A DNA stretch of 64,000 bases, taken from assembly GCA_973895155.1 (NCBI GenBank), contig OZ316899.1, positions 9,112,287 through 9,176,286 on the forward strand. Reading direction: 5' to 3'. Source of the stretch: Marsupella aquatica. Its lineage: Eukaryota > Plantae > Marchantiophyta. Positions 3,338 to 46,538 of this stretch are shown here, piece by piece (the first letter of the stretch is position 1; each line of letters begins with the position of its first letter). A program made the position numbers and the translations under genes. The notes under the pieces are model-generated. The model was given only the letters and a program-made list of their open reading frames with translations. It was not told the origin of the DNA and did not search any database.

Positions 3338-3847
3338 CCGTCCAATGTAAGGCAGATTAGAGTCTTCTTAGGATTTACAGGTGTGACGCCGCCGGTACGG
3401 CGGTTAATGAGTGATTCAGTCTAACTGCGCTCGGCACGCGCGTTAGGTGGGTCTTAGGCCGCTATTATTAGCATAACGACAGTATTTAGGTAATCATTAG
3501 GGGTAGGACATCATTAGGCAATAAGGGGGACTTCAGGTTCGGGCTGGCGGCGGGTCGCTATTCGCACACCCGGGTTACGAGCGTGGAGGGGCCCCTCCCT
3601 CGGGTCCGTATAACGAACTTAAGGAAGCGGCCACTGACGCACGCTGACTCAGACCGGCGGAGTGGCCGGTACACCACAAGCGTGAGCGGTTCAACCTATG
3701 GGCGTCGAGGAGACGTCGGGGATCGACAAGCCCTCAAAGTATAAAAGGGGAGCCAACCCTTTGTAGTGCACCAGTCCATCAGTCCGCGCGCCAGCTTCGA
3801 CCCCAGCTCTCTCGTTCTCTCTAGGTCGCCACTACTATCTCCTCTGA

Positions 3848-6800
3848 ATGTCGCACACGATCCTCTCCAGCTCGGCCATTCGATTCTGGACGCAGTTCCT
3901 ATCTACCGGAAGGCACTTGGCCGATTCATTGAAACACGCCAACCCGCGCCGATACGAGATCGAACGCGAATACGAGAGAGCCATCCGCCTAGCAGGACGA
4001 CACCACTACGTCCTTAACTTTGACTACCCGTCTCAGAGCGAGCTTTACCGACCAGCTGAGGTATCTGGGTACTTCTTCAACGGAGACAAATATATCGGGT
4101 TCTGGGAAGCATTGCTTCGGCTTCCGGACGAGGTCTTCAATATCCCGGGTACAATCGACCTGCAGCGACATCACTTCGACCACATCCCTGCCCAGGTTCG
4201 GGCTGTCATTAACGGCGAGTCCAGTACCAACCGTTCGACAAGGGCGTTCGCACTCGCTTCGGAGAACTTCTACCAGCACCTGCAGAGCTTCATGGGAACT
4301 CGGCCATCAACCAACATGACCAACTCAGCCGGACCTGTACCCGTACCCGTACCCGTGCCCATGCAACCCCAGCCTCAACTTCAGCTTGTCTGCTTCGGCA
4401 GCCTTTGGATCTGGTATCGTTCTTCGTGCCCGGGGTTTAATCTTCCCCTCCTTCTTCACTCGTCTCTTCTTCTTTTTGCTCCGGCTTTCGCTCTCCAAGT
4501 CACTTCCTGATGAACTGGAGGTAGAGGATCCGATGCTTGAAGCTGAATCCGAACTGGATTCCGTCTCGGAGCTGGACGAGGTCGAACGATGTTTCTTCTT
4601 CTTCTTGCGTTTCTTCTTCCTCTCGTCGTCCGATTCGGAGTCACTGTCACTGAAGGTTTCGTACTTACCCTTCCTGCGGCGTGCTCGCTGGCTCCGCCGG
4701 GAGTTATAGGTGGACTCCCGGTAAGTTTCGGCGCACGCTATGGCCGCCTGCATTGAAATTGGATTATTCTGGCGTACCCAAAATTGCATATTCGTGGGCA
4801 AACCATGAAGGAACCATGTAAGCTGGAGCGCGTCTCCTGGCCTGGGCCGGATCTTGGCCGCAAGTTTCTGAAACTTCTGAATGAATTTCCGCAGGGACTC
4901 TTTTTTTCCCATGCGAAGCTGGCCAATCTTTAATAGAGAACGCTGTTCTGATCCAATGGCACGAAACTCCTGCAGCAATGCAGCTTGGAATTGTGCCCAG
5001 GTAGTCCCGGGTGGTAACAAGTTGTACCATGGACGAGCTTCTCCCCGCATCACTCCCGGAAGGACGGTTAGCTTAATGGCGTCTTCCCCATTAGCTTTAG
5101 CAGTGGCTTCAAACTCATCCAACCATTCATCCGGATCATCCCCATGACGCCCTTTGAAAGGTTGATAATGAAATCGCGATCGTTGCGATATTTGTGGAGG
5201 CGCCTGAGCAGCGCGGGCCACCGGTGGAGCGGCTGCCATAGGTGGTGGTGGTGGTGGTGGTGGTGGTGGAACCGCAGTAGGGCCGGTCGAACCGGACCCC
5301 GAAGATCCCGGGGGTATGTTCATACGTCGGGACGATTGCGAGTCCTCCGAGCCCGACGAGTCGGAGCTTGTTGTGGTTGCACTTTCTCGTTGGCTGGTCA
5401 ATCTCCTCAAGTAAGCTGCTTGAGAACGAGTGACGGGCATTTACTCATATAAATGCAATGGTTAGTCCTGATGTATCCTGCCTAGGTGAATACGCACATG
5501 TCTCCCCTCTACGATATGTAGAGTGCCCCCTCCATCTAGCGCCAAAACAAAGGCTATGTCACGTCGTAGGCTTCGGCCTTAACTCAGACTTCAGCTTCAG
5601 CCTCAGCCGCAGCCTAGCCAAACCCCACCACCTATCACCCAGCCAGCACAGGTATGCTCTGTCATCAACGCTGTAGATCTTAGCGATGACGACGAGGCTA
5701 CCCCACCCTTGACCAGGCGGCCCAGAGGAACAAGCGCGCGGGGGGCCAAGTACCAATCTTCAAGTTTTCCCTCAGAGGGATCAGTAGACAACGGGTTCGT
5801 GATGAGGACCTGCCTCATGCCCGAGATAGCTGAGCGGCTGGAGTTCCAGAGGTACGCTCTCCACATGATGGAACCCCGGGGGGAGATCTCCGCCGCCCAG
5901 GTTATCCAGGTCGAGAACTATCGACCTAGGAAATGGGCGTCGTACTTCGCTAAGAAATTCCATGAAGAGATGGAGCGGCGAAGGAAGACGCTGTACATTG
6001 GCGGGAAGGCGTATTTCGCTAGCCATATCGAAATCATTCTTGAGTGGTACGCCCGGTTTGATCGACAAACCCTTCCCCGCATCAACGTTACAAAGCTGGT
6101 CCCAGCTAGGTGGGTTTTTCCGGCATTGGAGAGACGGCCCCAACCCGAGGCCCGAAGTCCAGTGGACACGCCAGCTTCACCCACCCCACCTCCACAAATA
6201 GCTGTAATCGTAACCGAGGAGGCACCGGAGGGGTCGGTCGTTGCAACCGTTGATGCGACCCAACTAGCCGGGCTAAGTACAGAAGTTGGTACGGCAGAGG
6301 TCTTACCCGAACCCGGGTCTCCCAAGGACCCGCCGGTGGCAATTCCGGAGAACCGGACATCGCTGCAGGAGGACACTCCAGCCCCTTCCAACGTTATGTC
6401 CCCAGGGCTGGACGTCACTGCCCAGGCCCCTGCGCGTGTTGATGTCTGCCCGTGCCCAAATCCGGACAGGCACAACTTGGACCACCCGGAACTCTTCGTA
6501 CAGGGTACGTTTCTGAACGGGCTTCTGGGAGATTTCTCTCATCAAATTGCCCGGGATACCAGGGAGTTCATGGCCCGGAAGGTAGCCTGTTTCTTCAATC
6601 AGGAGTTGGTTGTCGCCGTAAAGGCAGGTCGGGCCCAGTCAGAGGCCCTTCAGAGGATAGAGCGGTACCGGGTGGAGTCCGTGTACCTAAAGAACGAAGT
6701 GGCGGCTCAAGAGGCTGAGCTTCTGCAACTACGACCCAAGGTTGCAGCCACCGATGAGTTGTTAGCAAAGGCGTACGCTCTTACCGCCCTAGCCGAACAG

Positions 6801-7190
6801 GCCAAAGCTGGGAACGAGGCCGAGATTACACGACTCCGGAATCAGATTGACAGTTTGAAGAAACAAGCTGTCACCTGGCAGAAAGACCTGGAGGAGGCCG
6901 AGGAGCGAGCCCAGCGGGACGCGACGGAGATAGCCATGCTGCAGGCCGAGATGGCGCGGCTCCAAACCGAGGCCGAGAAGCAGGACCAGCTGGCGAGTAA
7001 ACTGACGAGCGACGCCCAGCAGCTGGAGGAGGCATGTCAGGAGGCAGCAGAGGAGACGAACGCGGCGAGGCGAGAGAACGAATCTCTGCTGGACCAGGTC
7101 CAGCTCCTCAAAGCGGACAATGACAGGCTTCGAAGGCAGCGGGATGGCCGTTCCCATTCGGGCGGCTCTGGCAAGCGTGCCAGGCATTAG
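3848..7190 (+). CDS. LTR-encoded protein of about 710 aa (3848-4387 joined to 5598-7190), C-terminal coiled coil, interrupted by an inverted insert
   Basis: ...PMQPQPQLQL ending at 4387 continues in frame as QPQPQPSQTPPP...LTRRPRG into ORF 5709-7190. The C-terminus is heptad-rich in E/A/Q/L. Confidence 0.7.
4388..5440 (-). pseudogene. gag: Retrotransposon gag, truncated N-terminal capsid part, inverted inside its own LTR
   Basis: MPVTRSQA start, FKGRHGDDPDEWLDEFE, GEARPWY and LRMGKKESLRKFIQKF. Clearly homologous to the gag at 46539-48384. Confidence 0.88.
5527..5544 (-). promoter_or_regulatory. Primer-binding site (plant tRNA-Asn-like)
   Basis: The minus strand reads TGGCGCTAGATGGAGGGG, 12 nt after an inverted copy of the LTR 3' end (5557-5597) and upstream of gag. 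Confidence 0.8.
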
Positions 7191-8094
7191 CGGCGGAGTA
7201 GGAATAGATTAGGATTAGGATTGGCTTAGTCAGGCTCTTGGGACAGGCACCTGCCTTAGGTACAGCAGCGCTGCCCTGCTGTCCAGCCTGCGTAGATTAG
7301 GATCTTCTAATAAGACACAGCCGTTTTCCGGCCTGACTGTCAGCTTAGTTAGGACCTTAGTCAGCGAATCTTCGGTGAGAGGACACCCCGTTCCTCGGCT
7401 CTTAGTATTTAGTGCACCCCTCGGTAGAGGCAAGGGGGGGGTTTTTAGTTTCAGAGTCGGACATCCGCGGGACATGCGGGGAGTCCCGACCTCTGGGAAT
7501 GACAGAGTACCAAGGGGAGGGGGTAGGACTAAGCTCGCCGGGCGAGTGCGGAGCCGGGCTCCGTTGTAGTGTGCACCCTCGGCCTTGAACCTGTGCATTC
7601 CAGGGCTGTCGTGTCAACTAAGTGTACGCATATGTTCCCTTTGTAGTAAAATCCTTTCCCATCATTTTTCCTTCGTGTAAATCGAGATTGTATGCATGTG
7701 TGCGCATATTGTGTGGGTTTCTCGTATATGGGTGGCAGCGCCGGGCCGAACGCACTACCCGAGACGTGCACAGGGTGCAGCCTACGGGTAAGTGGTTGCG
7801 AGCACGGGTTGAGGACCTGTATCATCGAATTCGGATCGAAGGCGGACAGCACAAAGGCTTAGAAGCCCTTAAGCCGGGGTCGATCCTGCTATCGACTAAG
7901 GTACGTTCCGGCGGCGGAACACAAACCATACCTAGGATGTGTCCGTATTTAGCAGTATGCGCACTTAGCGCTAGTTTACGAGAATAAGGTGCATTACGTG
8001 CTTCCCTTCCTGCCCGAACCCTCAGATTTACGAGGGATGTGCCCGTCTAAGCTGAAGTCTGAGTTAAGGCCGAAGCCTACGATGTGACAACAGG

Positions 8095-16900: not shown

Positions 16901-17183
16901 ACTTCAAGGCCGACCTCCGCGAGAAAGACAACCAGCTCGACCAGACTTATGCCAAGATGAATAAAATGGAGTCTGAGGTCGTTACAGAGCTTGACAAGGA
17001 GCTGAGAGCAACCCAGGAGGAGAGAGCTACCTTAAAGGAGGAATTGGAGGAAGCCCAGAAGGAGCGGGAGGAGGAACGCAAGGACCTGGATGAATTGCAA
17101 GAGGAGTTGGAAGAAAGCACGCGGAAGATGGAGAACTCACAGCGGCGAGCCAACAACCAAACGAAGCGGTTGAAGAAACAGGC

Positions 17184-17778
17184 TATCGTGCGCATACATA
17201 TCGCTACACAACATACATCGCTTGTCACATACATCCAGACATAGTCACACTGCCACATCACAAACACAAGAGAATGGAATACAAGTGGAACTCATGTCCA
17301 CACATGTCCAAAACCCACAATAATCTCCACACAATCGGCACCACGATCCCGGTCAACAATACCGCACCGATCCGATCACACACGTATGTCAAGCCAACGC
17401 ACCTTGCACTACTCAAGGAAATCCACGTTACACAAGCGGAGCTCACAGCCACCATAGCCACTCAAGCTCCTCTCTCTCCAAGGCTCAACATTGAAAGATG
17501 ATCTTTCAATGCCTCACAAGTGAGAAGTACCCTCTCACACAAACCTGACGGAACCTTATTGGCTCATATAACACACATACCAAACATACGGATCTAGATA
17601 GTATGATATACTCTAACACTACCTAGAATGGTGTGACAGCTGTCGTGCGCATACATATCGCTACACAACATACATCGCTTGTCACATACATCCAGACATA
17701 GTCACACTGCCACATCACAAACACAAGAGAATGGAATACAAGTGGAACTCATGTCCACACATGTCCAAAACTCACAAT
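17184..17778 (-). repeat. 3' terminal repeat block a-GC-b-a (sense orientation) with palindromic junction GACAGCTGTC
   Basis: The 138-bp a repeat occurs twice. The 317-bp b repeat matches 26561-26876. The junction is at 17635-17644 and a polypurine tract (minus AGGGGGGCG) is at 17779-17787. Confidence 0.92.
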
Positions 17779-17951
17779 CGCCCCCCTAGCTGGGAGTAAG
17801 GTCCCCTAACTCTAGCTAGCCATGAGTTCTATAAGGTTGATATACACCTTTTTAGGTGTGAAGATCAGGAGGCCGGGTGCAAGTGAGCCCCATCGATCAC
17901 CTACCTGCAATCCATATCTGCCAAGAGAACACAAATGATAACTAGTCGGCT

Positions 17952-19265
17952 TCACCGACACTGAGGACACAACCATGATCCACTAGGAATCACCTGCAAT
18001 GGTGGTGTCAAACATGACATGTGCCATCCTCTAGAACACTTATCACAAATCAACATAGTAGTTGCTCCCTGAGCAGATCCACACAACATACATTTCAAGC
18101 CAGCACGAACATGTGCCAAGCTTGGATCTACTGTACCATCAATGTTGGGAAGGTGACATGGTGCACAGTTGCGCACATGATCCTTCCAAACCATACCATC
18201 GCGTCCCTCCAACATCAGGACACCAGAAGGCAACACTTCACGCACACGTAAGATTGTCCGGCCTGCGGTCACATCAAGTGTCGTGGGTGCTGTCTGTTGC
18301 AAATAAATATAATCACCAGGATGAAATCGCCAAATGCTTGCACGGTAACCTCCTCCATGAATAGTGGCATACCTCAAAGTATCACGATGTTGGGCAATGG
18401 CAAGGTTGTCGAAAGCCATGGGCATCACTCGCTGAAATACCCGTGCTCTCTCTGAACACACCTTGATCCAAACATCAGGATCATCCAAGTTCACAACTGA
18501 TGCAGCATCACAACGAATAGCTGCTGGCAAATCTGGCTCTCTACCATAGAGCAAAAAGTAAGGTGAGAAGGATGCAAGTGATGCTTGCCGACTAAAACGG
18601 TAGCCCATAGCTAACCAAGATAGCTGGAGATCCCAATCTCCCAGATGACCAACCTGCAAGCCATACTTACGTAATCCTCTCTTCACAGTTTGCACAACTC
18701 TCTCAGCTAATCCATCTGCCTCAGGATGATCATGAGAGGTAGTACGATGATCAATCAGAGCTTGTTCACAAAAACTCTCAAACTCTCCACGAAACTCAGT
18801 TCCCTGATCAGTCAACACCTCAGCTGGTGCTCCAAAATGACTGAGTACACGATCCAAAAATGTAGCAGCAACTTCTCCACTGGCTTTATCTGGCAACGCC
18901 ACTAGCTCAATCCACTTGGAGAAGTGCTCCACCATGACCAAAACATACCGATTATGACGTTGGGTAAGAGGTAATGGACCAGCAAAATCCAAACTCCAAC
19001 GATATCTCAAACCCATGATCGGCAACGGGTGCAACTGGGGAGTGGGAGCATTAAATGATGCTCTCACTCTATCACATACCACACACTTAGCTATCAACTG
19101 CTGGACATGAGTGTGCATACCATGCCACCAATACTGTGTCTGCAGCAAGCTGTAAGTGCGCTTTACACCAAAGTGACCCAACTTCTCGTGCGCATGTCGC
19201 ACCAAATGTACTCTCTGTGATGGTTTTGGGACCACCAACACTCTACCATCATGCAATACTCTCAA
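17952..19265 (-). CDS. DDE integrase with C-terminal PHD finger
   Basis: HHCC (HEKLGHFG..CVVC), SLDFAGP, LTDQGTEF and AERVVQ, followed by the C4HC3 finger CMLC..ICDKCSRGWHMSC..WLCPQC. Confidence 0.93.
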   Translation of the reverse strand: MRVLHDGRVLVVPKPSQRVHLVRHAHEKLGHFGVKRTYSLLQTQYWWHGMHTHVQQLIAKCVVCDRVRASFNAPTPQLHPLPIMGLRYRWSLDFAGPLPLTQRHNRYVLVMVEHFSKWIELVALPDKASGEVAATFLDRVLSHFGAPAEVLTDQGTEFRGEFESFCEQALIDHRTTSHDHPEADGLAERVVQTVKRGLRKYGLQVGHLGDWDLQLSWLAMGYRFSRQASLASFSPYFLLYGREPDLPAAIRCDAASVVNLDDPDVWIKVCSERARVFQRVMPMAFDNLAIAQHRDTLRYATIHGGGYRASIWRFHPGDYIYLQQTAPTTLDVTAGRTILRVREVLPSGVLMLEGRDGMVWKDHVRNCAPCHLPNIDGTVDPSLAHVRAGLKCMLCGSAQGATTMLICDKCSRGWHMSCLTPPLQVIPSGSWLCPQCR

Positions 19266-19329
19266 AAGATGGTTTCCCTCCCATCGAAACCTCTTGGCTC
19301 TCTATAGAACCCTGTCACGTTCCTTGGCA

Positions 19330-21030
19330 TCAACACTGGCAACAATAGAACCACTGCGCAGATATTCCAACACTCACATCATTGTGAATATCTTGCTGTC
19401 CAGTAGTTACCTCACTAACATCCACATCTGAAGACTCATCATCCACTCCATCCAATGAGGTAGAGTCCACAGATCCACTGTATGCTGACACCCAACAAAG
19501 AAAGGCAGATGCATGCCATCCTGGCACCATCTCCTTATCTGACTCATCATGCCATCTGGTTCCAGTCTCATCTTGCTGACTGGTACATGGATTGCGGCTT
19601 AATCCATCTGCATCCAAGTTCACTTTTCCAGGCCTATGCACCACCTGGAAATCATACTCCTGTAACAACAATGCCCATCGTGCAAGTTTCCCTGTAAGCT
19701 TGTCAGACTCCATTAACCACTTAAGAGGCTGATGATCAGTGATCAAGGTGAAGGGATTACCAAACAAGTAGCAACAAAAGTGTGCAACAGCCCACACTGC
19801 TGCCAAACACTCTCCCTCATAAGAGCTATACTTAGCCTCTGCTGAATTGTTTGATCTACTGGCATAAGCCACAACAAACTCATTCCCCTCATCATCCTTT
19901 TGAGTCAGCACTGCTCCAAGTCCTACTCCACTCCAATCAGTGTGTAGCTGAAATGGTCTGCCTGAAATGGGTCTTCTCAAAATAGGGGATGATGCCAACC
20001 TTTGCTTCAACTCCTGAAAGGCATGCTCCTGGTCATTACCCCAAATCCATTCCTGATCCAACTTAGTGAGTATGGTCAAAGGTTTAGCAAGCTGGCTAAA
20101 TCGTTTAACATACCTCCTGTAGTAGCTCGCCAATCCCAAGAATGCACGAACTCTACTCACATCAGTAGGACAAGGAATCTGTGTAATGGCCTCCACTTTA
20201 GTCTGTTGTACACCCAATCCCCTTGGGTATATAGTGTGGCCCAAATACTCAATCTGGTCTTGGAAGAACTTACACTTGCCAGGATGGAGCTTCAACCCAT
20301 GTGCTCTCAATCTCTCCAACACAATCTGCAAGTGCTGTTGATGTTCTTCCACAGTAGAAGAATAGACCAAAATATCATCAATACAACATCTGACAAAATC
20401 CAAACCTGCAAGGATTCGATCCATGACTCTCTGGAACTCAGCTGGTGCATTCTTCAACCCAAATGGTAAGAATAACCACTGATACAAACGATCTTTGCCA
20501 TAAGAATCAATCCCCCAGAATGCTGTCTTGGACCTGTCAGCATGCCTAATTGGAAGCTGATGGTACCCTGCCCTCAGATCCAATGAACTGAAAACCTTTG
20601 CATGCCCCACAGCATCAAAGATCTCCTCAGGTGTGGGCATCGCATATCGATCAAATTTTGTCTGGCGATTAATAGGTCTGTAATCACCACACATGCGCCT
20701 ATCTGTGTAATTGCCATGCACATCCTTCTTGGCTGGCATCACTGTGGCAGATGCATACTCCCCATATGAAATCTCCACCAATCCAGCCTCCAACAAATCT
20801 TGAGTTTTGCTTTGAATCAGAGCTCTCTCCATGTCACTATAATGGTATGGTCTACGAAAGATTGGCGCATCACTAGCCAATTCAATCTGAATACCAGGGC
20901 CCTTCAGTGTCCCCAAATCCTTCATGCTGAATGCAAAACAATTCCAATAACTCTTCAGGAATCGATGCATGCGACGTCTCTCCTCCCCTGTTAACTTAGG
21001 GCCAAACTGTGGTTCCCAACTCTCCACCAA
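19330..21030 (-). CDS. Reverse transcriptase and RNase H
   Basis: LDLRAGYHQL, LPFGLKNAPAEFQ and CIDD (YIDD mutated); RNase H motifs LHTDWS, EGECLAAVWAV and TDHQPLKWL. Confidence 0.95.
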   Translation of the reverse strand: MVESWEPQFGPKLTGEERRRMHRFLKSYWNCFAFSMKDLGTLKGPGIQIELASDAPIFRRPYHYSDMERALIQSKTQDLLEAGLVEISYGEYASATVMPAKKDVHGNYTDRRMCGDYRPINRQTKFDRYAMPTPEEIFDAVGHAKVFSSLDLRAGYHQLPIRHADRSKTAFWGIDSYGKDRLYQWLFLPFGLKNAPAEFQRVMDRILAGLDFVRCCIDDILVYSSTVEEHQQHLQIVLERLRAHGLKLHPGKCKFFQDQIEYLGHTIYPRGLGVQQTKVEAITQIPCPTDVSRVRAFLGLASYYRRYVKRFSQLAKPLTILTKLDQEWIWGNDQEHAFQELKQRLASSPILRRPISGRPFQLHTDWSGVGLGAVLTQKDDEGNEFVVAYASRSNNSAEAKYSSYEGECLAAVWAVAHFCCYLFGNPFTLITDHQPLKWLMESDKLTGKLARWALLLQEYDFQVVHRPGKVNLDADGLSRNPCTSQQDETGTRWHDESDKEMVPGWHASAFLCWVSAYSGSVDSTSLDGVDDESSDVDVSEVTTGQQDIHNDVSVGISAQWFYCCQC

Positions 21031-21249
21031 ATCCCTAATATCTCTTTGTAGGGTAGAAGAGATAGCCGATGATTGCTATTTAGCAGTAGATTGAGCAGTC
21101 CCTTCCTGCTCAACAATCTGTCCAGCCTTGGCCAATCCTGCCATAGGTCCATGGACTGTCTGCTCGCCCCCAACTGTGGTCAATATTGCCTCAATGGACC
21201 GCAAGCTCACCAAGGGACAATTAGTAATTCCAGCAGAGCGCATCCGCAA

Positions 21250-22240
21250 CTATTCAGCTACTCCCAAGCTGATAATCCAAGTCAAACAATTCAGGTCCAT
21301 TGCTTGACCAAGAACCTGGCGCCGCAAACCCTCTGACACAGAGGCAACTGCAGTGGTGCCAGTAAAAAATCCCATAGCACGCTCTCTCTCATCAGCAGTA
21401 GGCTCCACTAATTGCTGGAGAGCTGTGTCCCACACAAGTCCAGGGCCACCTGCTCTGAATGCATATGAAGTAGAGTGGCTTACAAGAGTGGGTAATGCAC
21501 AACATGGGTGCCCAACTGCATTGACCATTGCCAATGGAGGTCTATCAGGTTGGGTCACACCCTGTGCCCGACGCCCTGGATCCAAAATATCATCCACCAC
21601 TAAGGCTGGTGAGCGTGGAATGCTGTCAAATGCGCGCTTCAGCACCTCACATGGGATCAAATTAGTCCACCACAAGCGTGGATGATGTGCACAAGAACCC
21701 ACACGTGCAACATCCAATAACATAGCAAGTCCAATCCAAGACCTCACCTGGTGAACACTGGCAACAATCCGACTACGATCATCACCTAACAATGGCACAT
21801 TCTCCAAAATGTATGCTGGAGACTGTGTCTGATGTAGCTGGAGATGACGCAGCACCCGTAACATCTCTCAAAACAATGCAGAGCGTGGATCATGAAGTCC
21901 ATGCCCAATGCCCTAGATTGGCCCTGACATGGCCAACCAGCAATCACCAAATCAATGGGGCCAACACGATGTAGATGATCCGCCCCCAACAATGAAATAT
22001 CAACAAGTAGTGCATGCTGATAACCATGAACAGCATCCACTGGCAGCAACTGTGGATATCTATCCACCAACATAGCCACATGTCGCAATGAGACCCTCCG
22101 TGCTGTCTCATCTGTCTCCACATACAAATAACGACGCACAAGAATTCCTGCCTGAAGAACAGCAGCCAATCCAGTACTAATCCCACCAAAAAGATCCAAC
22201 AAACAAATACCCTCCGGTGGATACTGCCAAGCAATAGGAG
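21250..22240 (-). pseudogene. C5-cytosine DNA methyltransferase domain (DNMT3/DRM-like) within pol, one frameshift
   Basis: Motifs in canonical order: I LLDLFGG, II YLYVETD, IV IDLVIAGWPCQG, VI YILENVP, VIII RLWWTN, IX ERERAMGF, X LGQAMDLN. Confidence 0.92.
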
Positions 22241-22569
22241 TGGTATCCAATGGTGAAAGAGTCACAAGTCCATCTGCAAGAGACTGCTCTGCTCCTGGCT
22301 GTGGTGTAAAAGCATGACGCCATGCATCATGTACTAATCGTGCTGCTGCCTGTGCAGTGCCCCACACTGGTGGCACAACACTGCCAACAGGTAATCCTCG
22401 CATGATGTGCTCCTCATGAGACTCCTCCAATGGTGGAACATCGGCTGCATGCGCATTACCCTCAATCAAATCATCAGGTCCAGCAATTACACCACTGAAT
22501 GCTGCCAAAGACAATGGTGTGGATTTAGGGCCTCCCACAGGTCCACTAAATCTCACTGGCAATTTGCTC

Positions 22570-23000
22570 AATCGAGCATCTCCGGACTGCCAATCAAGTC
22601 TATATGACACTAATTCCTCCCAAAAATCAAGAATAAATCCCATGGGGTAGAGCACTGTACATCCCACCAACACATCATATGACTCTGCCTTAGTCAGAAT
22701 AGCTCACGCCTGTATCTGTGAGCTATCTGTGGTATGACCTTCCTGAATCCTCAAATCAAGTGGTCTCCTGGTGATATGTTGTGTAGGTGTAGGTCCCCCC
22801 AATGAAGTCTGAATGGGAAAGGGACAATCCTCCAAATCCTTTGGACGCAATCCCAACCCACGTATGGCAGACTTCCCCAACATCAAGGGTTGAGCACCAG
22901 TATCCAGTAACACTCTCTCTGGCTGGTATACTGCTCCAGAAGACCCAACTAATCGGAAGATGCCACTCCGATTATCCAATGACACAACACTAGGTTTAAA
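22570..23000 (-). pseudogene. Aspartic protease of the split-repeat element
   Basis: RVLLDTGAQPLMLG and the downstream LVG..VLYPMGF.LDFW. Confidence 0.8.
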
Positions 23001-23351
23001 CCTAGTCCTCTCAAATGTAGGGTGTGCTGGTAAATCCACCAACCTTGCTGCTGCTGCATGCCATGTCTCACTAGTAGCAGTAGGTGGTATGGTCTTCATT
23101 GCTTCAACACTGCAAGCTGCTTCTGCATGGGAAGCAACAACTGGAGTGTCCTCATAGAGTGTAGCTGCCAATCTGAACACTTTTGCAGGACCAACTCCCA
23201 AGTTCAGCATGTCTATCGCTGAAAATAATGGGGTGCGTACTATGGCAGTAGCCACCCCCAGCAGGGTACTTGTCATCCCTACTGTATCACTACCGGATTC
23301 TGCCAACTTACCCACGCCAGGGTTTGTCCGAACCGGGTTCATAGAGGCAGT

Positions 23352-25051
23352 CTAAACTGTCTCTAACAATGTAAAAGACTGAGGAAGCTTTGTCTGCCAA
23401 CGTGCATCCCCCCTCTGTGGATCTAGCTCCACTACTGCTCCTCGGGGCTCAAGAGCTTTGGCTGTCCCACGTGTCAAAGCTGCTGATGCATCAATATGTG
23501 CAGTGCTACACATGAATCCCATGGTGGCAAGATCTCCATCAGCTCCATAAGATGTGGAAGGACCATGGGATGTGGAAGGTCCATAGGATGTAGATGCCCC
23601 ATCACCAGAAGTAGGTCTCACCTGGGAACTAGCCATAGCAGCTAGCTGTTGCTCCAATTGAGCAATCTTAGCATCCTTTGGATCTATGGTTACAGTAGGG
23701 GCAGCGTCACCTCCCTGTCTCCCTGCATGTGGCATGCCACGACCACGTCCACCACCTCTACCTCCTCCTCCTCTTCCCTGATCATGTGTACGGGATCCTC
23801 CCCTTCGTAACTCAGGGTGGAGTGAGAAACACCTATCCTTGGTGTGTCCAGGAGCTCCACAGTGATCACACTGTCGCTAATCAGGTGCTGATGCTCCCCC
23901 TGATCCTCTATGATCTGGGCAATATCTCTGTGCATGATCCCCACCACAGGTCCAACATCCTGACTGCTGTCCAGCATAAGAGGGCACAGGTCTCTGGCTG
24001 GTAGACTCTCGTGCAGTAGGCTTCTCCCTCTGGCTCTTCTGTGCAATAGGTTGTGGTGTAGATGTAGATGCAGCCTTTGGTGCTTCCTTGGCAAATCCAG
24101 AAGTCACCACCTTCTCATTCACCATATTGAGCTCAATGCGCTCAAAAAGGGTGAAACAACTGCTAATGTGGGATTTGCATCCCTAAGCAGAGTGACATCT
24201 CTCACTCTGCGTCGCAATTATCTGTCCAGAATTGCATACCAAAACTGGACTGCTTGAGCCTCTGTTACTCCCTTGGTGACAATGATCAATCTGCGCATAT
24301 GAGTGTATGCCTCACGTAGACTCTCTCCAGTCTTGCGCTGGAACTCCTGGAGACCCTTCAACTTATCAGTTCTCACACCCTGATAGTTCTGCTTCAGTAC
24401 CTCAAAGAATTCCACCACAGGATTAAATGCTGGCGCAACTCCAGTTCCTGTCACAATCACACCGGCAGGAGTAGCGGTGGATGCTGCTGGAGTGCTGCTG
24501 GTGGATGGTGTGCCACTCTGGCTAGTGCTGCTAGAAGAGGCAGCAACTGTGGCAATGGGTTGGGTAGCCGCACTAGTGCCATAGGTGATGGATACGTAAT
24601 TAGGTGACCAATGCTGCCTCCATGCCTCAATCTCAACCAAATGAGCCTTTCAAAACTCATGGTAGTCATCCATGGGTGGCCCTTCCAAATGCTGAAATAA
24701 TCCCTTCCATGCCATGAAAGGGGTAAACAACATGGCGTTACGCAATGTCTGCATATCGCACCACGTATCAAACTCCTGGATGAAGTCATCCAGATCAATT
24801 GTGCCAACTGCACCAGAGTATCGTCGTGGGCCCTTTGTAGCCCCGTACATCTCGTCCATATCCCACAACAAAGGTGCAACCACCTGATGACGAGGAGAAC
24901 TGGTCACTGAGTCCTCGTCGGAATCATTGTCTAAAGCTGCACTGCTGACTGCTACCAATGCCGCTGGCCGAAACTGTGCCCCACTCCGAGTGAAACCGGT
25001 CCGTCGTCCATCGGGTAATCCAACAGCACCAGAAGAATCTGTGGTGACCAA
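23352..25051 (-). pseudogene. gag: gag with two CCHC zinc knuckles, frameshifted
   Basis: YSGAVGTIDLDDFIQEFDTW, FQRKTGESLREAY, CWTCGGDHAQRYC and CDHCGAPGHTKDRC. Confidence 0.8.
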
Positions 25052-26560
25052 CCCTAACCTAATCTATGTGCTAACCCTAAGGGCAATCTATCCCTGTCAG
25101 CACCACAAGCACTCACCATGGTGTGTTGGGCATCACTCCAACATCACCAGGAGAGAAATACATAGCACAACTAGAATGTCCGGTTGCAAACCCGGATCAC
25201 TCCTATAGAATCAAGCGCCCACGCCAAACTAACATGGCGCATAAACAGGAAGCATGTGTGGAGAGGATCCAACAACAAGAAGAGGATTTACCACAACTCT
25301 CCACACCAATCAATCAGAAATACATGTAAATAATGTGCATATAGTTCAATGTAGGGCCTTCATAATAGGCCTCAAGAATCCCGCGTCAAATATTCAAGAA
25401 TCCATCGCAAACTAGCTAAAACAGAGTATCTAGATGAATTCAAAAGTGCATAAAACCCCTAGGGCCTCATTCCTTGGACATCAAATGTGGAAGGAAGCAT
25501 GTACAATGCACCACATAGGAACTTGCTAGTTAAGCGCATGAGGGGAGGAATAGCTTTGGGATGGGTGACCTCTCACTTGTCAGTATGCACCAAATCTGCC
25601 ACTCCAAAATGGCAGCACTTGCAATTCTCCTCACGTACCAGCAAGCTGGCTTGCTGGCCCGCCCGCTCCTGCTTCGCCCTCACGCCCCTCGTCCCGAGTT
25701 GCCTCGAAGCCTCGAAACGCCGAGATGAGCCAAAGAGTGAGACCTTCACGCCCACAACGCTTTGCTATGCCGGAACCAAGTCCAAGTCCAGATTTTGCAC
25801 CATTTGGACTTATGGCCCCTGTTTCCCTTCGCAGAACTGCACGGTAGCGGCGTACACTCCGTCGCAACAGTAATCCGCGGATGCTGCCACCGCATCGACG
25901 TACTATCTCACAAAAATGCAGATCATCAGTTGAGATCTCGCAACATTCGGGTCTCAATCCCTCAGTTTCCTTCAAAGAAACACGTTGCAAAATGCAACTC
26001 AACTTCGCGCCAACCAACACTTAACCGAGTGCAAAATCAGCAATATATGCAGCTGCGGACAGTCGCTTTCTTCACACCAAACTTGGTCCGCGCAGATCAG
26101 CATACGGAAGAACTAGACAACAATACGGCCGTGCCTCGCAGATCTGCATACGGACAAACTAGATAGCAATACGGCCGCGCACTTTGCAGATCTGCAACCG
26201 ATGACACCATCAGAATGCCGTTTCCTTCACAAAAATAGCCACCGCTTCACAAGATAGAACGCTGCCGCACCCGATCTGCTTGTAGCCAACCGATACAACT
26301 CAAACACGTCGATCTGCAACCAAGATCTGCACATTGTCGACAGATTTGTGCATACAGACTACAGATTCGCCAAACCTCCAACTCCAGATCCGCTCAAGAA
26401 TCAAACTCACAGGATCTCAACTTGGATCCACATGCCGGCGATCCAATCAAACGATACGCTGCACGATCCGAGATACCACAAACCGTTGCCGAACAGAATC
26501 AAACTGAAAATCGAAGCTCTGTCCAACAACAACAGAGTCCAATGCTTGATCTTTCAATGT

Positions 26561-26876
26561 AATCTCCACACAATCGGCACCACGATCCCGATCAACAATA
26601 CCGCACCGATCCGATCACACACGTATGTCAAGCCAACGCACCTTGCACTACTCAAGGAATCCACATTACACAAGCGGAGCTCACAGCCACCATAGCCACT
26701 CAAGCTCCTCTCTCTCCAAGGCTCAACATTGAAAGATGACCTTTTAATGCCTCACAAGTGAGAAGTACCCTCTCACACAAACCTGACGAAACCTTATCGG
26801 CTCATATAGCACACATACCAAACATACGGATCTAGATAGTACGATACACTCTAACACTACCTAGAATGGTGTGACA
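26561..26876 (-). repeat. 5' terminal repeat b of the split-repeat element
   Basis: Near-identical to 17322-17638. Begins TGTCAC on the minus strand. Confidence 0.92.
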
Positions 26877-34031: not shown

Positions 34032-34917
34032 ACGTGGAGGGAGGAGGTGTGAGTGGGCAGGGCGGGCTCAGATCTCCAAGTTTAGAATTAGGATCAGGAC
34101 CAAGAGGCGGCCCTGACACTTAGCTTAGTGGGATTGCGGATCCACTGGTAAGAGCAACACTTGTGCTTCTGCCTCGTTGTACATAGGTAGATTACAGTTA
34201 GGTAGATTACAGTAGGGTAGATTAGGCTTACGCAGCAAGGAATTAGGCGGATCCACTACCAGGATAAGTACCTGGGCAGCGGAGAGTTGAGGGCCTTCTT
34301 CCTTAGCAAGTTTTTAGTGCACCAGCAGGGTTGGGATCAAGTAGTTAAAGAAGCTCTCGGTTAGTTATACTGTGACCCTTGTGTATATTCATGTTTCCTC
34401 ATACTTAAGAGATGAATAGAGTTGGCCTCACGGCTTAGTTCGCAGATCTTGTATATGAGAAGTACTGTCTGTATGGCAAGTGCATGGTATAACTCAGTCA
34501 GAAGGAGTCATTTTTCTATTTGTGTGTCGCATTAACTTGTTTGAAGATTTCCCACATCAACCAAGAAGGGAGTAAGCAAGGTAGTAAGAGTTGGATGTGT
34601 CGAGCTGAGAGAGGTCTTAGCGGCTTACCCAAGCCAGTTGGGGATCATTCCGGCGGCGGAATCCAAACATACCTAAAGGGAAACCGAGAGAGGAGGACAA
34701 GGGAAGGCCTAGAATAGGCCGGCTACGTATCTCATGACCCAATGAAGGATCTGTCCAGTATATGTGAGTAAAATGTTAAATAGTAGTAGAAAGAAGTTAG
34801 CAGCGTCCCATGCCGCTAAGCCGCAAAATCAGCCTCGCCAAGAGCGAAACCTGTGGGAATCAGCTTGTGTAGAGGGGTTTCTTGGGTTTAGGGAGCCATG
34901 GGACGCACCACAACAAG

Positions 34918-35405: not shown

Positions 35406-35526
35406 TGGAGCAATTGCCTTCCCTTTCTCAATGGGAGTAATTGGGTCGGATGGAGCTCCTATTTGGCTTCAGAAACCTTTGGGGTGGCATCTATCTTTGT
35501 ATCTCCACTCCCTAAAACACTTTGGA

Positions 35527-37913
35527 CCCGGCTGTTGGCTGTTATGTGGGCCTCCTCTATATTCCTCAGCTCTCGCTTCCACTTCTCCCTCTCTTTGATC
35601 GTATCGGCCAACTCTCCCTGCGTCTGAGTCAGTTTATCCTTGATATTCTGATTATCAGCCTGCGCGGTGTCCAACTGCCCCTGCATGATGTTCAGCTCAT
35701 GCCGTTTAATCCGCAGTTCATCTTGGGCTTTCTTGGCCGCCCTTAGATCTTCAATCTTGGCTTCCATCCTCCTAAGCCGCCGAATGACCTCGTCCTTCTT
35801 GCTTCTCTCTAAAGCCACCGCTTCTTCTAATTGGTGCTTCTCCAACTGCTCCCTATGGAAAAAGGGTCCTACCTCCAACTCCTCTCCAAAGATGCCGAGC
35901 GCAAGTTCCCCACACATCTCACCATACTCCATGGCTCTATTCTTAGCGTAGGTGGAGTAAGTAGAAGTGATCGGCATCGCCCATCGTGGCCTCTGCTCCC
36001 AAGCCGTCTTGCGGATCTCTTCAATTGTGGCTAGAGGTTTGCTTCCTTTTTCGGCTAGCCGCCTGATGTCCTCCGGCCAATCTCCTCCTGGTAAATCCTT
36101 TTCCCTAGCCAGGGCTGCCTCCTCTTCCTGCCTGATTTGCTCCTGAAATTCCTGCGCCGTCTGTTTTATGTCGTCAAAGCTCGGGGGAGCAACATCTGGT
36201 GGGGGAGACTCAGGGCTACTCTGCTGGTTGGGGTCCCCTCGTACTACCCTTGGAAGTGTGGGGACAAACCGGCCACAGGTCCTTACTCCTGGAACGTGAT
36301 GGTCCGACCCATAGCCGGAGTTATCATGGCTGCAGTCCTCCACTGCCTCCTCTATTTCTTGGACGTCCAGCTTCTCCCTCTCCTCTTCGTCGGTAGGAGC
36401 TTCAGGCAATTCTGCCTCAGATTCAGAGCTTGAGACTCCCACATACATTCGAACACCTGGCTTGGATTCCGGCCTGATTCTCTCCTCGTCTCCAGCAAAG
36501 GGGTTTTCTCTTGTGATCCGGTGTAGGCCTACCTCTGGAGTGGTGTTCTGCATTGTTGCCGTTGCCGATGCCGATCTCTTTTCTTTCTCTAGTAGTTTCA
36601 GCAGACTCTGCATGCCTGGTTGCTGCATTGGCAAGTCCTCCTTCCTGGGCCTAAACACCTGCTCGATTGTAGGGCTAACAGGTGGTTGAGGCTTCTCTGC
36701 TACCGGCCTGGGTTCTGGAGCTTCCTCGGGTGCCCTTACCTACAGGGGAAGTACTGGGGCAAAAGTCTGACCTCTGGCATACCGGCACAACAGCGGCATG
36801 TGATAGCCAAGCCGCGACACGCTCCCCATGCCGATTACCTGCTGCTCCTCCTTTAAGATCTTCTTCAATTGGTTGAGGAGGTACTCGTTGTAGTCCCGGC
36901 TTGGGTCTGGCCTCTCTGCCAGATAGACCTGTGCCTTGCCGATCTCCGCCCTCGGCAAGTTACAATGCATGGTCACCCGCAAGAAGTCGATCATCTCTCC
37001 TATGTGCGGGTTGGTGCAGGTGTTCCGGAAGAAGCCATTCTTCGTTGATGGCCCAGGGAACGACCGGAACTCCTTGTCAGGCAAGGTCTTCCTGGTATCA
37101 ACTTTGGTCTTATTGCCTATCGGCAAGCCAAACACTTCGGCAATCACTTTGGGAGTAAGATAGAAATCCTTCCCATATATCCTCGTGCAATTGGTCTTGG
37201 GTTCCCATGACCCCATGAATTCTAATAGGTCTGACTCCGGTACCTCCGGCTTCAGCCATGATAATCTTACAAAGGCCTCTAAGCCAGATCCGGCCATGAA
37301 GCCTTGGTACTTCTTGGTCTGCATGGCCATAAAGCATGCATCCTCCTCCCGTGCAAAATGTAGTTGCACCTCTACCGGTAGGGTTGCCGCCCAGCCCTTC
37401 CAGGTGTCATCCCTGGTTGGAATGGCCTTGATGGGATCGACCTCCTCCTCTTCGGCTTCTCCCTGCCTCCTGCTCTGCTGCTCGGCTGGCTTCTTTGGTA
37501 CCGCCGACCTCGTTCTTTTTGCCGGGGTGGCTTCATCATTGACGGCTCCCTTCCTCTTCATCTCTGCTGTCGTGGAGGTTTCTCCTAGCACTGTTGCCTG
37601 GGTCCACCTTTCCGTGCTACCCTTCAATTCCCAGTGTATGTCGTTGCAGTTCTTGATGGCCTCTCGGATGCCGACGACGCTGTCTTTGCAAAACAGAAGA
37701 TCGTCGAGCTGATTGGAAGTAGGAGTCCACAAGAACTCGTCTTTGATGAGTTCGCCTCCTAAGAAAGCCGTCTTCTGCAGCTCCCACAATCGAGCGAGCT
37801 CCTGCCGTTCTCGAGCTGCCCTTTCTGATTCCTTGTCCTCATAAGTCTTGATGTACTCAGTTGCCCGTTCGAACAGGCATCCCCAGAAATATGCCGCTTG
37901 ATTGACGTTGCTC
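35527..37913 (-). mobile_element. Internal fragment of the family B LTR ORF without termini
   Basis: ORFs 36740-37927 and 35459-36658 encode the family B protein. No TG/CA ends or TSD. Confidence 0.9.
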
Positions 37914-38145
37914 GTTGATCCGATCAATGAGCATTATTTCCCTCTATGTAATCGGTTGGAGAGACGTTACTCAATGTGAATGTTGAGATTGAATATTACT
38001 TATCGGTAACAGAAAGCGACAATTTAGGAATTGTGATAGGTATTAATGTAAATTATGCTAAAATATTGTCATGAAGATTACGCTAAACAATAGTTACCAT
38101 TAAATATTACCGTTGTCCAGACACCTTAAAGACAAACATGCAATG

Positions 38146-38540: not shown

Positions 38541-38802
38541 AAATGGACCCACTTCTTTCGGCCTATATGTGGTCATTTTGATGTAATAAATATTCCTGAC
38601 ACCCGCACTTCTCGGGGAAAAAAGGACAAACTTTTTATTTATGATTTCAACGGATGCAATTTAGTGCTTGTTCCCTGTCGTATTGAAGTGACTCTTTTAA
38701 CGGCCAGTCGTCTTGAAGCAGTGGTATAAGCATTCCATACGGGCGGGATTGGTTTTGTTGATTCCTTGATTTTCTTGGTTACTTTCACTTCATTTCTCTA
38801 CA

Positions 38803-41800
38803 TTGTCGCGCTCAATTGTTATTACACGTGCTTGTATAGGGGACGTCATCAAGGTTCCCGTGCAAGTTTCTGATACGTACAAGCAAGTAAGTGAAACCTA
38901 CCTTTGCGGAAGATTTGATTTGAGAATGAATGATATTGAGTCGATTGTTCCCGAGGAGTCAACGAGTGGAGGACTTGAATGTACTGCGGCATTTGATGTA
39001 GATGAGGGAATGTGTTTTTGGCATATGAATGTCGGACTTTGTTACACGCTTTATGTCAGACGTACTCCTCTTGAATCAGTAGTTGGGAAGATTCCTGTCC
39101 AGGTTGTTGAAATCTCTGAGAGTGAAGATGAGGATGTTGCGCCCAATCCTCCTGCGAAGTACAAAGTTCCAGATTCTAGTTTCCTTAAGAGTGAACCGGT
39201 GGCCACCTCCGGAGTTGTCCATAAGGTTTATCGGCGGAGTGCAATGGACGCCTTACTCAAGGCCACGGGACATAGTGAACTATCAAGATTTATATTGGCA
39301 AGGGACTTCCAACATGAGCAAGTTCCTTGTTTTCCAAACAAGTACAACGGAAATGTTGTATTTGAATTGCCTCCCATTGAGAGAATGCTCTCCAAGGGAT
39401 TGAGACTTTGTGACATGGACCGTGCCAAAGATTGCAACATTTGGACCCAAATTTTTCTGACAACTGCAAACGTGCAACCAAAGAAACACTGGGAATTTGG
39501 TAAGGTTACGTGTACTCGGTTCATCGAGTGCAGGAACAAGTCCTGTGAGTATTTTCAGCAAAAGAAGAGATGCAATGCAAAAGCCTGGCATGGTACTCCT
39601 AAGCTTAGTGGCCAGCACGTGGTGGGTTTGTTCAATGAAGAGGGTGGTGTGGTATGTCACTACTGTGAGCAGATTCCTTTTTGTGTGGAGTCTTGCCCTG
39701 CTTGCTTGTTCTATATGTATCCGCAGGTCCTACTTGATACAAAAACCTGTAGTCACATGTCTCGGCTCGCGGTTCATATAGGTGAACATAACCATCCAAG
39801 TAGAAATTTTTTCTTGAGGAGCGCTGAAAAGATAGCCAAGGATTTAATAAAAAGAAATCACGAAACCAATCCTTTTGCAAAGTCGACTGGGATCTTAAAT
39901 TTTGCGACCGGTTTGCTTGTGAAAGCTCTTTGCAAAAACGTCAACGACATGGTAGATATTGAAGAAACAAATATTTGGAAGTCTCTCATGGTACTATCTA
40001 CTCCTCGGAAATTTGCATCGCTTTGTCGAAGCGTTCGAATGGACCAGAATGGTCATGGTGAGTTAGATTTCCTAGCTTGAATGCAAAGGACAAATAACAT
40101 TTCTTTCCTCCAAAGGTATCTTCTGTTGGGTCAGGGTTGTCTAGCAGATAGGCCCCATATATTCAAAATGACAGTCAAGGGTCACGGATCTGGTGTAGAT
40201 CTTCTACGGCAGATGCAACCAAGCGGAAGATTGGAAGGAGCTTGGGTTAGTTTTGATGTCATGAAGTGCGTGACAACCGATTGGTTTACTTTCAATGCAC
40301 ACGTTTACGATCACAACTTCCAAGCTCTTTGTACAATCTTTACATGCGAACTTAAAGCTGAAGACACGGAGTCTTTTGAGAAGGCATGGAGAATTATCAT
40401 TGAGGTTTGTAAGGAAAATGGGTTACATGAGGTTGTCATCCAAGGTTTTATGGCTGACAATGCTCAGGCTGGGTGGATCGCCGTTTGCAATGTCTTTTTT
40501 GGAGGGCACCCAGAACGTGAATGCTCCAATGCATTTCACTTTTACCAGTCTTTCCATCGACATTCCGCGGAAGGAGTACTTGAGGGTAGGCAACCTGAAC
40601 ATCAAAGACTCTGGGAGAAATTGCGGAATGCTCCAACGTTTGTTGCGGCATATCGAGTTTCTAGGGAGATTATGTTGTGGTGGCAAGCAGGCAACTGTGT
40701 ACCAGGAAAATTGATGATGTTGCAAAGTTGGATATCATGGTGGGTTGTTTGATGGCGTCACTGGGGGAATTTCATTCATGTGGTAAGTTTTATCTATGCG
40801 TACAATAGTCAATTCTCAATGTGTTTATACTACCGCCCAATGCTACTTTTAACTGTACAAAAAACTTTGCAACATTTATGACTTAGGACCACTTGGACAA
40901 TAACAACATTATATTATTATGTCATACACATTGCTAACGCTTGGCGCTGCTTAAACAAAATGACTAAATTTGGTATGCATGGACTTCATTGTAGAGCAAA
41001 AGTGCAGAAAAAGGTGCCCTCATTCCAAACTATACAGGTTTTGAGTCGAGGCACGCTTCCATGAAAGCATGGGCAACCAAAAAATGGTGGGTCTCTTTGA
41101 AGCATGCAAAGTTGATCAAAATTGAGCTCTATCTCAAGTTTCGGGTTACAGCGCATATCGGAAAGGACTCAATAGAGGGAAGGGGCCAACTATCTAGGAA
41201 TTAGCATTCCAATCCGCAGACCAAGCAAGTTCACCCAAGTTATTCAAAGAAGCAACCAACATGATTCTTTCCAACGCTGTTGATTTTGATCTGGGTAGAA
41301 GTTCTCCTCTAAATGGAGATATTGTCGGTTAAGAGGAAGGGACTTGCAATTGGGATTGTCTTGCCACAAGACTCCCATCGGCATGACACCATTCTCATCA
41401 CTACCCCAAATACTCAAGGATTCAAACGGAAGAATCTCAACAACACTGAGTTCACTTCCATTCCCGCCAATGTAATAGATCTTGTAGTCGACCTCTGCGG
41501 GAGTGACACTTCAACAAATGAAAGTGATTCCCTTGCGAACACCCTTGAAGCCACAAGGGCAACAACATCATTGCAACCACCACTCAATGCCCCTGCTGTG
41601 CTTCAGCGTTTGCCGACACAATCAGCTCCTTTGGAAATGGACGTTCCTAGAGGTAGTTGGCATTTGAGACAGATGGTCAAATATGGGGCAGGGCCGCAGT
41701 GTAATGGGACTTTGTATGGAAATTCTGAGAGGGATGAGTGTCAAAATTGTGTCAAGAAAGTCGGGTTCCATTCGGTTGCTGGTGTTGTCGGCATTGTTGT

Positions 41801-41938
41801 GTGTGGATATTGCATTTTCAGAGGAACACCCATTGCCAAAATGATTGGTTCTGCACAAACAAAACATGCTACAAGAGCCGCCCGCGTCGTGGTGTTGAAC
41901 GCTGTGGAATGGCTCAGTGGAGGCTTGAGTAGGAAATG
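38803..41938 (+). pseudogene. Putative MULE/Mutator-like DDE transposase with Cys-rich N- and C-terminal domains
   Basis: VSFDVMK, GFMADNAQAGW and ECSNAFHFYQS (CxxH-like), plus Cys clusters. In-frame stops and a putative intron at 40783-40994. Truncated by an LTR at 41939. Confidence 0.55.
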
Positions 41939-42900
41939 CGTCAATTTTTTGCTTTCAAGGAGTAGTAATTACATAGTTTTAGTGATTAGCGGGGTTGTTA
42001 GGTTTAGGGTAACTTAATAAGTAAGGAAGTAGAGTAGGGAAATAAATTGAGGGAGAGGACATGTTTCTCTAAGAAGTATCAAGAGTTGAGTAAGTTATTT
42101 GGTAAGGGCGGAAAAAAGTTATGGTAGTCGGCAAGTCGGGCCAAAGGCATGACCAATACTTTTGAGAGATAAATTTTGCTAAGACTCACCCTATAGGTGC
42201 TAGGTAGTCCCTAGATCACACATAAAAGTCACAAAGTCAAGTGGGGTCTTAACTTAGGAGTTGTAAGTATTTTGACAAAACTTAAAGTTACCAAATAGCG
42301 GGTCTCAGGAAAAATAGCTGATGGGAAAAGGTAGGGGTTCCAAGTTGCAAAGTAGGTTAAATATGGTCCACTCTATCCCTGGAAACTTGTGGCAAAACTT
42401 GGTTACCTTTGGTTACTTTTTGGGAACATCTCAAAGTTCAGAAGAATTTTGGAAAACATAAGAATTAGTCCTCTTTACCTAATTTTATAAAATTGGTTAT
42501 AGGGTTTTGTTTAGATCTTAGTAAACCAGGACATAGCCCTATGTCCAGAGAATCTATGGATCTACTCAAAAGTCCTTTTGGCCTTATGGGTGATTTTTGG
42601 CGGTGGGTACAATATGGGCCGGTGAATTATATTTTTTCCAAAACAAAATCCGACTAAGTGTAAAAATGCTTCGACGAGGCTACCACAAGGCAGGAATAAG
42701 TCAAGCACAAGGGCGATTGGGAGATGGTTGAATAGACCAGGAAATCACAAGGTGAAGGAGCTTGAGTGGGAGTGGGAGTTAGTTGACTTTTGTTGTAGTG
42801 TGACTTTGGTAGTTAGTTGGACTTTTGTTGTAGTGGGACTTTGGTGATTGGACCTTGGTCCTTGGTCCTCTACTTTGGTCCTTGGTCCTTGGTGGGCTAC

Positions 42901-46414: not shown

Positions 46415-46432
46415 TGGCGCCGCTGCCGGGGA
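46415..46432 (+). promoter_or_regulatory. Primer-binding site (tRNA-Asp, Athila type)
   Basis: TGGCGCCGCTGCCGGGGA. Confidence 0.88.
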
Positions 46433-46538
46433 CAACTCTTTGCAATTTTTATTGTGGGAGTGGAGCCACAAGACTTGGAGGTGTGTTTGCAGGTTGGTTG
46501 TTCAAGAGGAGGGAGATAAGAAGGTGATTGTGAGTGGC

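Follow-up and report, generated by a model that had tools for sequence, protein, structure and literature searches.

A motif conserved across three families of giant gypsy-type LTRs in Marsupella aquatica, possibly an RNA element of the 5' leader

What keeps a short block of sequence intact in long terminal repeats (LTRs) that have drifted apart? The question is raised by a stretch of 64,000 nt of Marsupella aquatica DNA (GCA_973895155.1, contig OZ316899.1; hereafter the window), which consists of nested plant transposons, with gypsy gag, RT, RNase H and integrase remnants and CACTA tnp2. A sequence-only reading had proposed that three LTR families in this window (A, B and C) share a motif made of a hairpin, a G-run and a second hairpin, and that this motif acts in cis as RNA. 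Our results show that the motif is a genuine conserved element of giant plant gypsy LTRs.

All four motif sites were confirmed, at 7856-7934 on the + strand (family A), at 34622-34675 and 61374-61427 on the + strand (family B copies 1 and 2, hereafter B1 and B2) and at 43206-43288 on the - strand (family C). The motif spans 54-83 nt, with a conserved core of 35 nt, and a 14-nt core, TTCCGGCGGCGGAA, is identical in 4/4 copies (7906, 34648 and 61400, + strand; 43220-43233, - strand). For the 14-nt core, the chance expectation was 0.11 (two mismatches allowed) and 0/100 shuffles reached 8. Elsewhere in the window, TTCCGGCGGCGGAA was absent at <=2 mismatches, its own reverse strand aside, and a profile built from the four copies detected no fifth copy of the motif.

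The first hairpin, H1 (GGCTT/AAGCC), and the second, H3 (6 bp with a GCGG loop), pair in all copies, and the H1 loop varies from 4 to 10 nt, as the sequence-only reading had described. Its hairpin, G-run, hairpin layout is present at all four sites but is incomplete, in that it omits a further stem, H2, which in A and C follows the G-run and precedes the second hairpin; H2 starts two bases past H1 and is absent from B. Specifically, the family A motif comprises H1 (7856-7875), GG, a variable H2 (7878-7897), a lower helix (7899-7903 with 7929-7933), the H3 core hairpin (7905-7920), an A-rich strand and ATACCTA. The family C motif (- strand) comprises H1 (43288-43269), H2 (43266-43243; 8 bp, two of them G-U), the lower helix, H3 (43234-43219) and ATACCTA (43212-43206). 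B1 has H1 (34622-34635, with a 4-nt loop), the G-run, H3 (34647-34662) and ATACCTA (34669-34675), and B2 has H1 (61374-61387), H3 (61399-61414) and ATACCTA (61421-61427). The motifs of B1 and B2 are identical at 51/54 nt; the two copies represent one family, so that our alignment, which comprises the four window copies only, samples three independent lineages. Differences between B1 and B2 (3/54 in the motif, 0/16 in the core, 25/294 upstream and 25/228 downstream) are too few to weigh.

Every copy lies inside a solo LTR of 2.5-4.7 kb that is of Ty3/gypsy type and bounded by a 5-bp TSD. The family A LTR (3382-8089, + strand; 4708 bp as found; TSD ACAGG) is inserted in an RT/RNase H-like remnant, while that of B1 (13922-34912, + strand; TSD ACAAG) is split by two nested gypsy elements. 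B2 (56953-61662, + strand; 4710 bp; TSD GACTT) carries a decayed LTR ORF homologous to that of A, and the family C LTR (42901-45416, - strand; 2516 bp; TSD GCTAC) has no detectable LTR-ORF remnant. Read in motif orientation, all three types start with TGTGA(C/T)GCC and end with ACA. The motif strand is the sense strand in all copies, and the motif stands ahead of the LTR end and of the primer-binding site (PBS). From its 3' edge to the LTR end there are 156 nt (A), 238 nt (B1), 236 nt (B2) and about 306 nt (C); placement near the 3' end thus holds, but the range of about 170-320 nt given earlier becomes 156-306 nt when measured from the 3' edge and 234-388 nt from the 5' edge. The window holds no RT of families A-C, and clade placement is thus not given. 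Family B has very many copies in the sequencing runs examined, and among the 40 of 298 run substitutions listed, most were private changes of the window copy.

Other features of these LTRs were also observed. Both family B LTRs end in a hairpin of ~100 nt with a 10-bp closing stem (approximately 34806-34907 and 61556-61657, + strand; -46 and -56 kcal/mol), which would shorten the distance from the motif to the PBS. Close to the family C LTR's 5' end there is a tandem array with a 26-nt unit (44861-45068), whose AAGCTGAAG resembles the 3' end of the family A LTR in opposite orientation. A and C have in common a second small block 50-70 nt past the core (approximately 7958-7975, + strand, and 43163-43180, - strand), with the palindromes TGCGCA and TAGCGCTA; B lacks it.

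The three families are related. The LTR-ORF proteins of A and B are 31% identical over 99 aa (E 2e-11), and the motif is therefore a retained ancestral element. Had the flanks been equally conserved, recent common ancestry alone could account for the motif; between B and A/C, the flanks were at background (z -0.4 to 1.6) and the motif reached z 9-17 in a post hoc test. Between A and C the motif reached z 20, with weak alignment of the upstream 300 nt (z 6.5). The description of the families as otherwise divergent therefore applies to B versus A and C but only partly to A versus C. In whole-LTR blastn, the motif was the only match between C and B (E 3.5e-5; 0/150 Markov controls as high) and the best match between A and C (E 1.7e-12). 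Between A and B it was the top match, at a marginal level (E 0.025; 6/150 controls as high). It is very improbable that the motif is a functionless ancestral remnant, picked post hoc: the families are indeed related, the A and C flanks align weakly, the A-B match alone is marginal and there are four copies only, but the C-B match beats 150/150 controls and is the only nucleotide match across 2.5 x 4.7 kb, and rapid decay would be expected of a 14-mer rich in CG.

With regard to RNA structure, support is modest. When folded in isolation, the sense strand is predicted to form H1 and H3 with probabilities of 0.75-1.0. The H2 sequences of A and C are unrelated, yet they form 7 and 8 pairs in the same register (chance about 0.04 each). 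The sole compensatory pair is the one that closes H3, G-C in A versus A-U in the other two families. The named stems contain six G-U pairs (one in A, four in C and one in B) and no A-C pairs, which favours the sense strand. Covariation, which the sequence-only reading had named as a check, was not significant among these four sequences: 1/11 pairs changed on both sides (122/500 shuffles were as high), and 9/11 core pairs were without any stem-keeping change. The lower helix RGGTA/TACCT forms in A and C, whereas in B two of its pairs are broken and it is unfavourable, so that no constant partner accompanies the retained ATACCTA. Adding 30-150 nt of flank often lowers sense H3 pairing (0.01-0.87), the antisense strand of B and C then forms H3 equally well or better, and overall folding z-scores are weak (-0.3 to -1.4). 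Given the weak z-scores, the sensitivity of H3 to its flanks and the non-significant covariation, the structure is plausible and unproven. The core was no more complementary to the LTR 5' end than shuffles were, and duplex predictions with the PBS-gag leader were uninformative.

The motif matches no RNA family catalogued in Rfam. Searches of Rfam 15 returned seven weak matches over the whole window (E up to 5), none of them on the motif, and none on the motif in 401-nt slices of A, C and B1 (E up to 10). Hammerhead ribozymes are defined by a three-way junction whose core consists of CUGAnGA and GAAA. A pattern search for this core within 120 nt, on both strands, found nothing at the motif, its one match, loose and permuted, lying downstream of B2, in agreement with the earlier remark, and with Rfam, that the hammerhead core is lacking. 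Ribozymes of the HDV type require a nested double pseudoknot that includes L3 and P1.1 and has its catalytic C in J4/2. The H1 loops of 4-10 nt are too small for P2, P3 and L3, Rfam gave no match, and the sole match to the HDV-like pattern was an unrelated stretch of A on the antisense strand. Core patterns and Rfam models of the twister, pistol and hairpin ribozymes likewise did not match. A minimal twister-sister-like ribozyme has been described with an internal loop of 5 and 6 nt, a conserved cleaved CA and two stems (PMC11620745), and the motif, with an internal loop of 1 x 7-8 nt in A and C, does not conform. A tRNA-derived element was rejected as well (ARAGORN found 0 genes in the window, inspection found no acceptor stem, and B lacks H2), as was a conserved uORF or peptide, since block spacings vary from family to family (by 1 and 5 nt) and flanking stops occur in several frames; no reading frame is common to all three families.

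Homologues of the motif were not recovered from the viral, metagenome and prokaryote collections searched. Viral contigs gave 0 matches to the motif and no relatives of gag or pol. Metagenome contigs gave 45 matches that look like chance, with H1 in 0/45 and a best profile score of 18 bits versus 55-68 for the true copies; prokaryote genomes gave two matches, both without H1. The exact core and any description of the motif were absent from the literature searched, which lay outside subscription journals and supplements, and the motif is apparently undescribed so far.

The orientation of the motif is fixed by an inverted piece inside the family A LTR (4333-5597, - strand; left border approximate), which contains the last 41 nt of the LTR, a 12-nt spacer and a PBS-like site, with an open gag (5440-4328, - strand) behind it. 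This order of LTR end, PBS-like site and gag places the motif on the sense strand, and a placement antisense to gag was rejected on the strength of this piece and the TSDs. The gag of family A has its sole named relative (1/2 matches) in the liverwort Calypogeia fissa, at 50% identity. The piece is possibly the product of a template switch, and a short sequence, CTCAGCCG, is common to both of its junction regions. In family B, run X2 showed PBS-like letters as in A behind position 61662 (one joint, depth 77; consensus of 15 loose ends, agreement 0.42), and the loose-end consensus of run X1 at the same place showed no PBS. A and B have a PBS type in common. Upstream of the family A motif lies a U/UG-rich tract (7556-7806, + strand), found at a similar place in all four copies, 100-350 nt upstream of the motif (T up to 0.40-0.42, versus about 0.2 beside the motif). 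We infer that this tract is the polyadenylation region and R-U5 border, which would place the motif in U5. Among the first suggestions, that of a conserved element acting in cis is supported, given its sense orientation and its position close to the LTR 3' end, before PBS and gag. A 3' processing signal is less likely because the tract of plant 3'-end type lies upstream of the motif. A dimerisation signal gained no support, as self-dimer gains of -8.7 to -9.7 kcal/mol are within 1 sd of window means of -7.4 to -9.6 (kissing loops fall outside this model).

We tentatively favour the reading that the motif is an RNA element of the 5' leader (U5) whose sequence is recognised, probably by Gag, in packaging or priming; we rate it as quite possible, somewhat less than probable. 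The motif would lie downstream of the poly(A) site and hence be carried by genomic RNA at its 5' end only, where it would fold into two or three hairpins. Gag may then read the folded motif and so select RNA for packaging and priming; by analogy, the partner would probably be the element's own Gag. H1 and H2 would serve as scaffolds whose loop length and sequence are free to drift, and the recognised surface would be the invariant core of H3 stem, GCGG loop, A-rich strand and ATACCTA. A frozen stem and loop core with drifting peripheral stems is what sequence-specific reading of a folded RNA would leave behind. The place ahead of the PBS and the retention in family C, which lacks the ORF, fit a cis signal for Gag, and persistence beyond the divergence of the LTR ORF to 31% and beyond the unalignable flanks of B versus A/C points to selection. 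The compensatory pair in H3, the paired H2 of unrelated sequence and the G-U bias are RNA-like features. There is precedent in Ty1, whose Gag binds a structured 5' end (PMC8396678), and in FIV, where R/U5 is involved in packaging (PMC5035971).

Nonetheless, this reading needs to be taken with caution. Covariation is non-significant, and invariance of the core fits a DNA dyad equally well. H3 is often lost in longer context, the antisense strand folds it at least as well in B and C, the lower helix is broken in B, and the X1 loose ends behind 61662 are without a PBS. A further element, at 46540, whose gag is 48% identical to that of A, has a PBS of another type and no motif, which also counts against reading by Gag in the leader.

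Among the alternatives, it is unlikely, though worth serious weighing, that the core is a DNA dyad, CCG-N4-CGG, bound by a host transcription factor or an LTR-encoded protein and acting on LTR transcription or silencing. Its minus strand reads GCCGCC, which we take to be the ERF GCC-box core. Stem and loop of the core are both invariant and, as DNA, it is a palindrome, as a dyad would be, and the LTRs of Sireviruses offer a precedent with palindromic motifs of CGG-CCG core that are proposed cis-activators (PMC2829016). However, a dyad leaves H2, the G-U bias and the variable H1 loop unexplained, and an LTR-encoded partner is difficult to reconcile with family C, which has no LTR ORF.

Control of expression from the leader, by a switch for splicing or export or by gag translation via an IRES or shunt, appears likewise unlikely; here the LTR-ORF protein could be a Rev/Tat-like partner. 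Three to seven ATGs lie between the motif and the LTR end, and in family A a further three separate the LTR end from the gag ATG. A donor-like AG/GTACGT, paired to ATACCT, is present in A, and AG/GTATG occurs on the minus strand in A, C and B1. The sense donor, however, is weak in C, has no GT in B and is thus not conserved, no frame is shared by the three families, and the LTR-ORF protein has no fold match and, coiled-coil noise aside, none in Pfam.

That protein is encoded in family A at 5583-7190 (+ strand; 535 aa from stop to stop, with a coiled-coil C-terminus), in sense and upstream of the motif. Large sense ORFs inside LTRs, with an unnamed domain and a coiled-coil end, were observed at 5583-7190 (+), 56953-60625 (+) and 35462-37933 (-). 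In a 50% library the protein had 19 relatives, and one of the 10 looked up was from Calypogeia fissa; two other searches gave no homologue, and its structural model (pLDDT 63) gave no fold match. Together with the gag relative, the match to C. fissa makes a host among non-seed plants likely. Close to the family A LTR's 5' end, past a TATAAAA at 3741, there is a 220-aa frame (3848-4510, + strand) with no match to the B ORF or Pfam. Elsewhere, the gypsy element at 17182-26876, whose integrase ends in a PHD finger, hosts a cytosine methyltransferase-like stretch between protease and RT (21789-22703, - strand; weak DNMT3A matches, E 0.0014). An ORF just upstream of the CACTA-like region (55691-56521, + strand) has a weak SET-domain match (E 3.5e-4), and long open frames at 38770-42017 (+) and 52946-54262 (-) match no Pfam family and probably encode transposon proteins. 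In the motif-less element, the stretch at 46396-46543 (+ strand) holds the differing PBS and a single good splice-acceptor-like TTTGCAG ~45 nt before the gag ATG.

Docking of the primer tRNA outside the PBS is, in our estimate, quite improbable. The primer is presumably tRNA-Asn, and an invariant host RNA as partner would freeze even stem positions. A and B have the same PBS type and the motif-less element at 46540 another; moreover, the H3 5' arm is similar to the 3' strand of the acceptor that the PBS implies and could pair with the displaced acceptor 5' strand. The primer activation signal of retroviruses is a precedent (PMC11251516). The putative pairing, however, is short, post hoc and 150-300 nt from the PBS, and docking explains neither H1 nor ATACCTA. 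The 46 loci examined for the primer tRNA contained 0 tRNAs.

We are equally doubtful that the motif is a self-cleaving ribozyme of a class not yet described, one that would set where the element RNA ends. Small ribozymes have invariant joining and loop nucleotides and peripheral stems that can be deleted or vary, and the motif is conserved in a similar pattern. Such a ribozyme would cut the RNA 150-300 nt before the PBS in both LTRs of protein-coding giant-LTR gypsy elements of non-seed plants, and a very long LTR would benefit from a trimmed 5' end. Replication would then proceed via trimmed or circular RNA, in an autonomous counterpart of retrozymes, whose LTRs carry hammerheads (PMC4918200). 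Against this, no Rfam ribozyme model matched at E up to 10 and the cores of known ribozymes are absent at the motif; in addition, cleavage downstream of R would remove the redundancy for strand transfer unless the RNA circularises (PMC4918200).

RNA selection and priming in giant-LTR plant gypsy elements are poorly mapped, and a 35-nt core that is kept while proteins fall to 31% identity offers a well-defined site to probe, to mutate and to test for cleavage. Self-cleavage, if it occurs, would make the motif a ribozyme of a new class and imply a new route of replication. For plant Metaviridae, one account holds that LTR models are not buildable because of length variation (PMC3601003). The motif offers a marker for locating solo LTRs of this lineage.

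Compared with known systems, the motif resembles the Ty1 5'-end elements (pseudoknot, PAL1/PAL2, CYC5, Psi) and retroviral R/U5 in being conserved, near the PBS and, presumably, folded and in the leader (PMC8396678, PMC5035971). It differs in having no sequence or Rfam similarity to them, in lying wholly in the LTR, 156-306 nt upstream of the PBS, and in showing no standout palindrome or dimer signal, and its RNA role is putative. Retrozymes also have a conserved RNA motif in divergent plant LTRs with gypsy-type ends, but their LTRs are about 350 bp, non-coding, flanked by a 4-bp TSD and equipped with a hammerhead core (PMC4918200), whereas the LTRs described here are 2.5-4.7 kb long, carry an ORF in 2/3 families, have a 5-bp TSD and show no such core at the motif. 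The LTR motifs of Sireviruses are likewise short CG-rich palindromes found across families with unalignable LTRs; they belong to Ty1/copia elements, are multi-copy and lie upstream of the TATA (PMC2829016), in contrast to our motif, which is single-copy, gypsy-type, near the LTR 3' end and accompanied by extra variable stems. Families A-C resemble OTA non-chromovirus Ty3/gypsy elements in their giant LTRs (up to about 5 kb in OTA), 5-bp TSD, tRNA-type PBS and extra ORF (PMC6317226, PMC11963269). The extra ORF lies inside the LTR and in sense here, whereas in Retand it is antisense and placed between pol and the 3' LTR (PMC6317226, PMC11963269).
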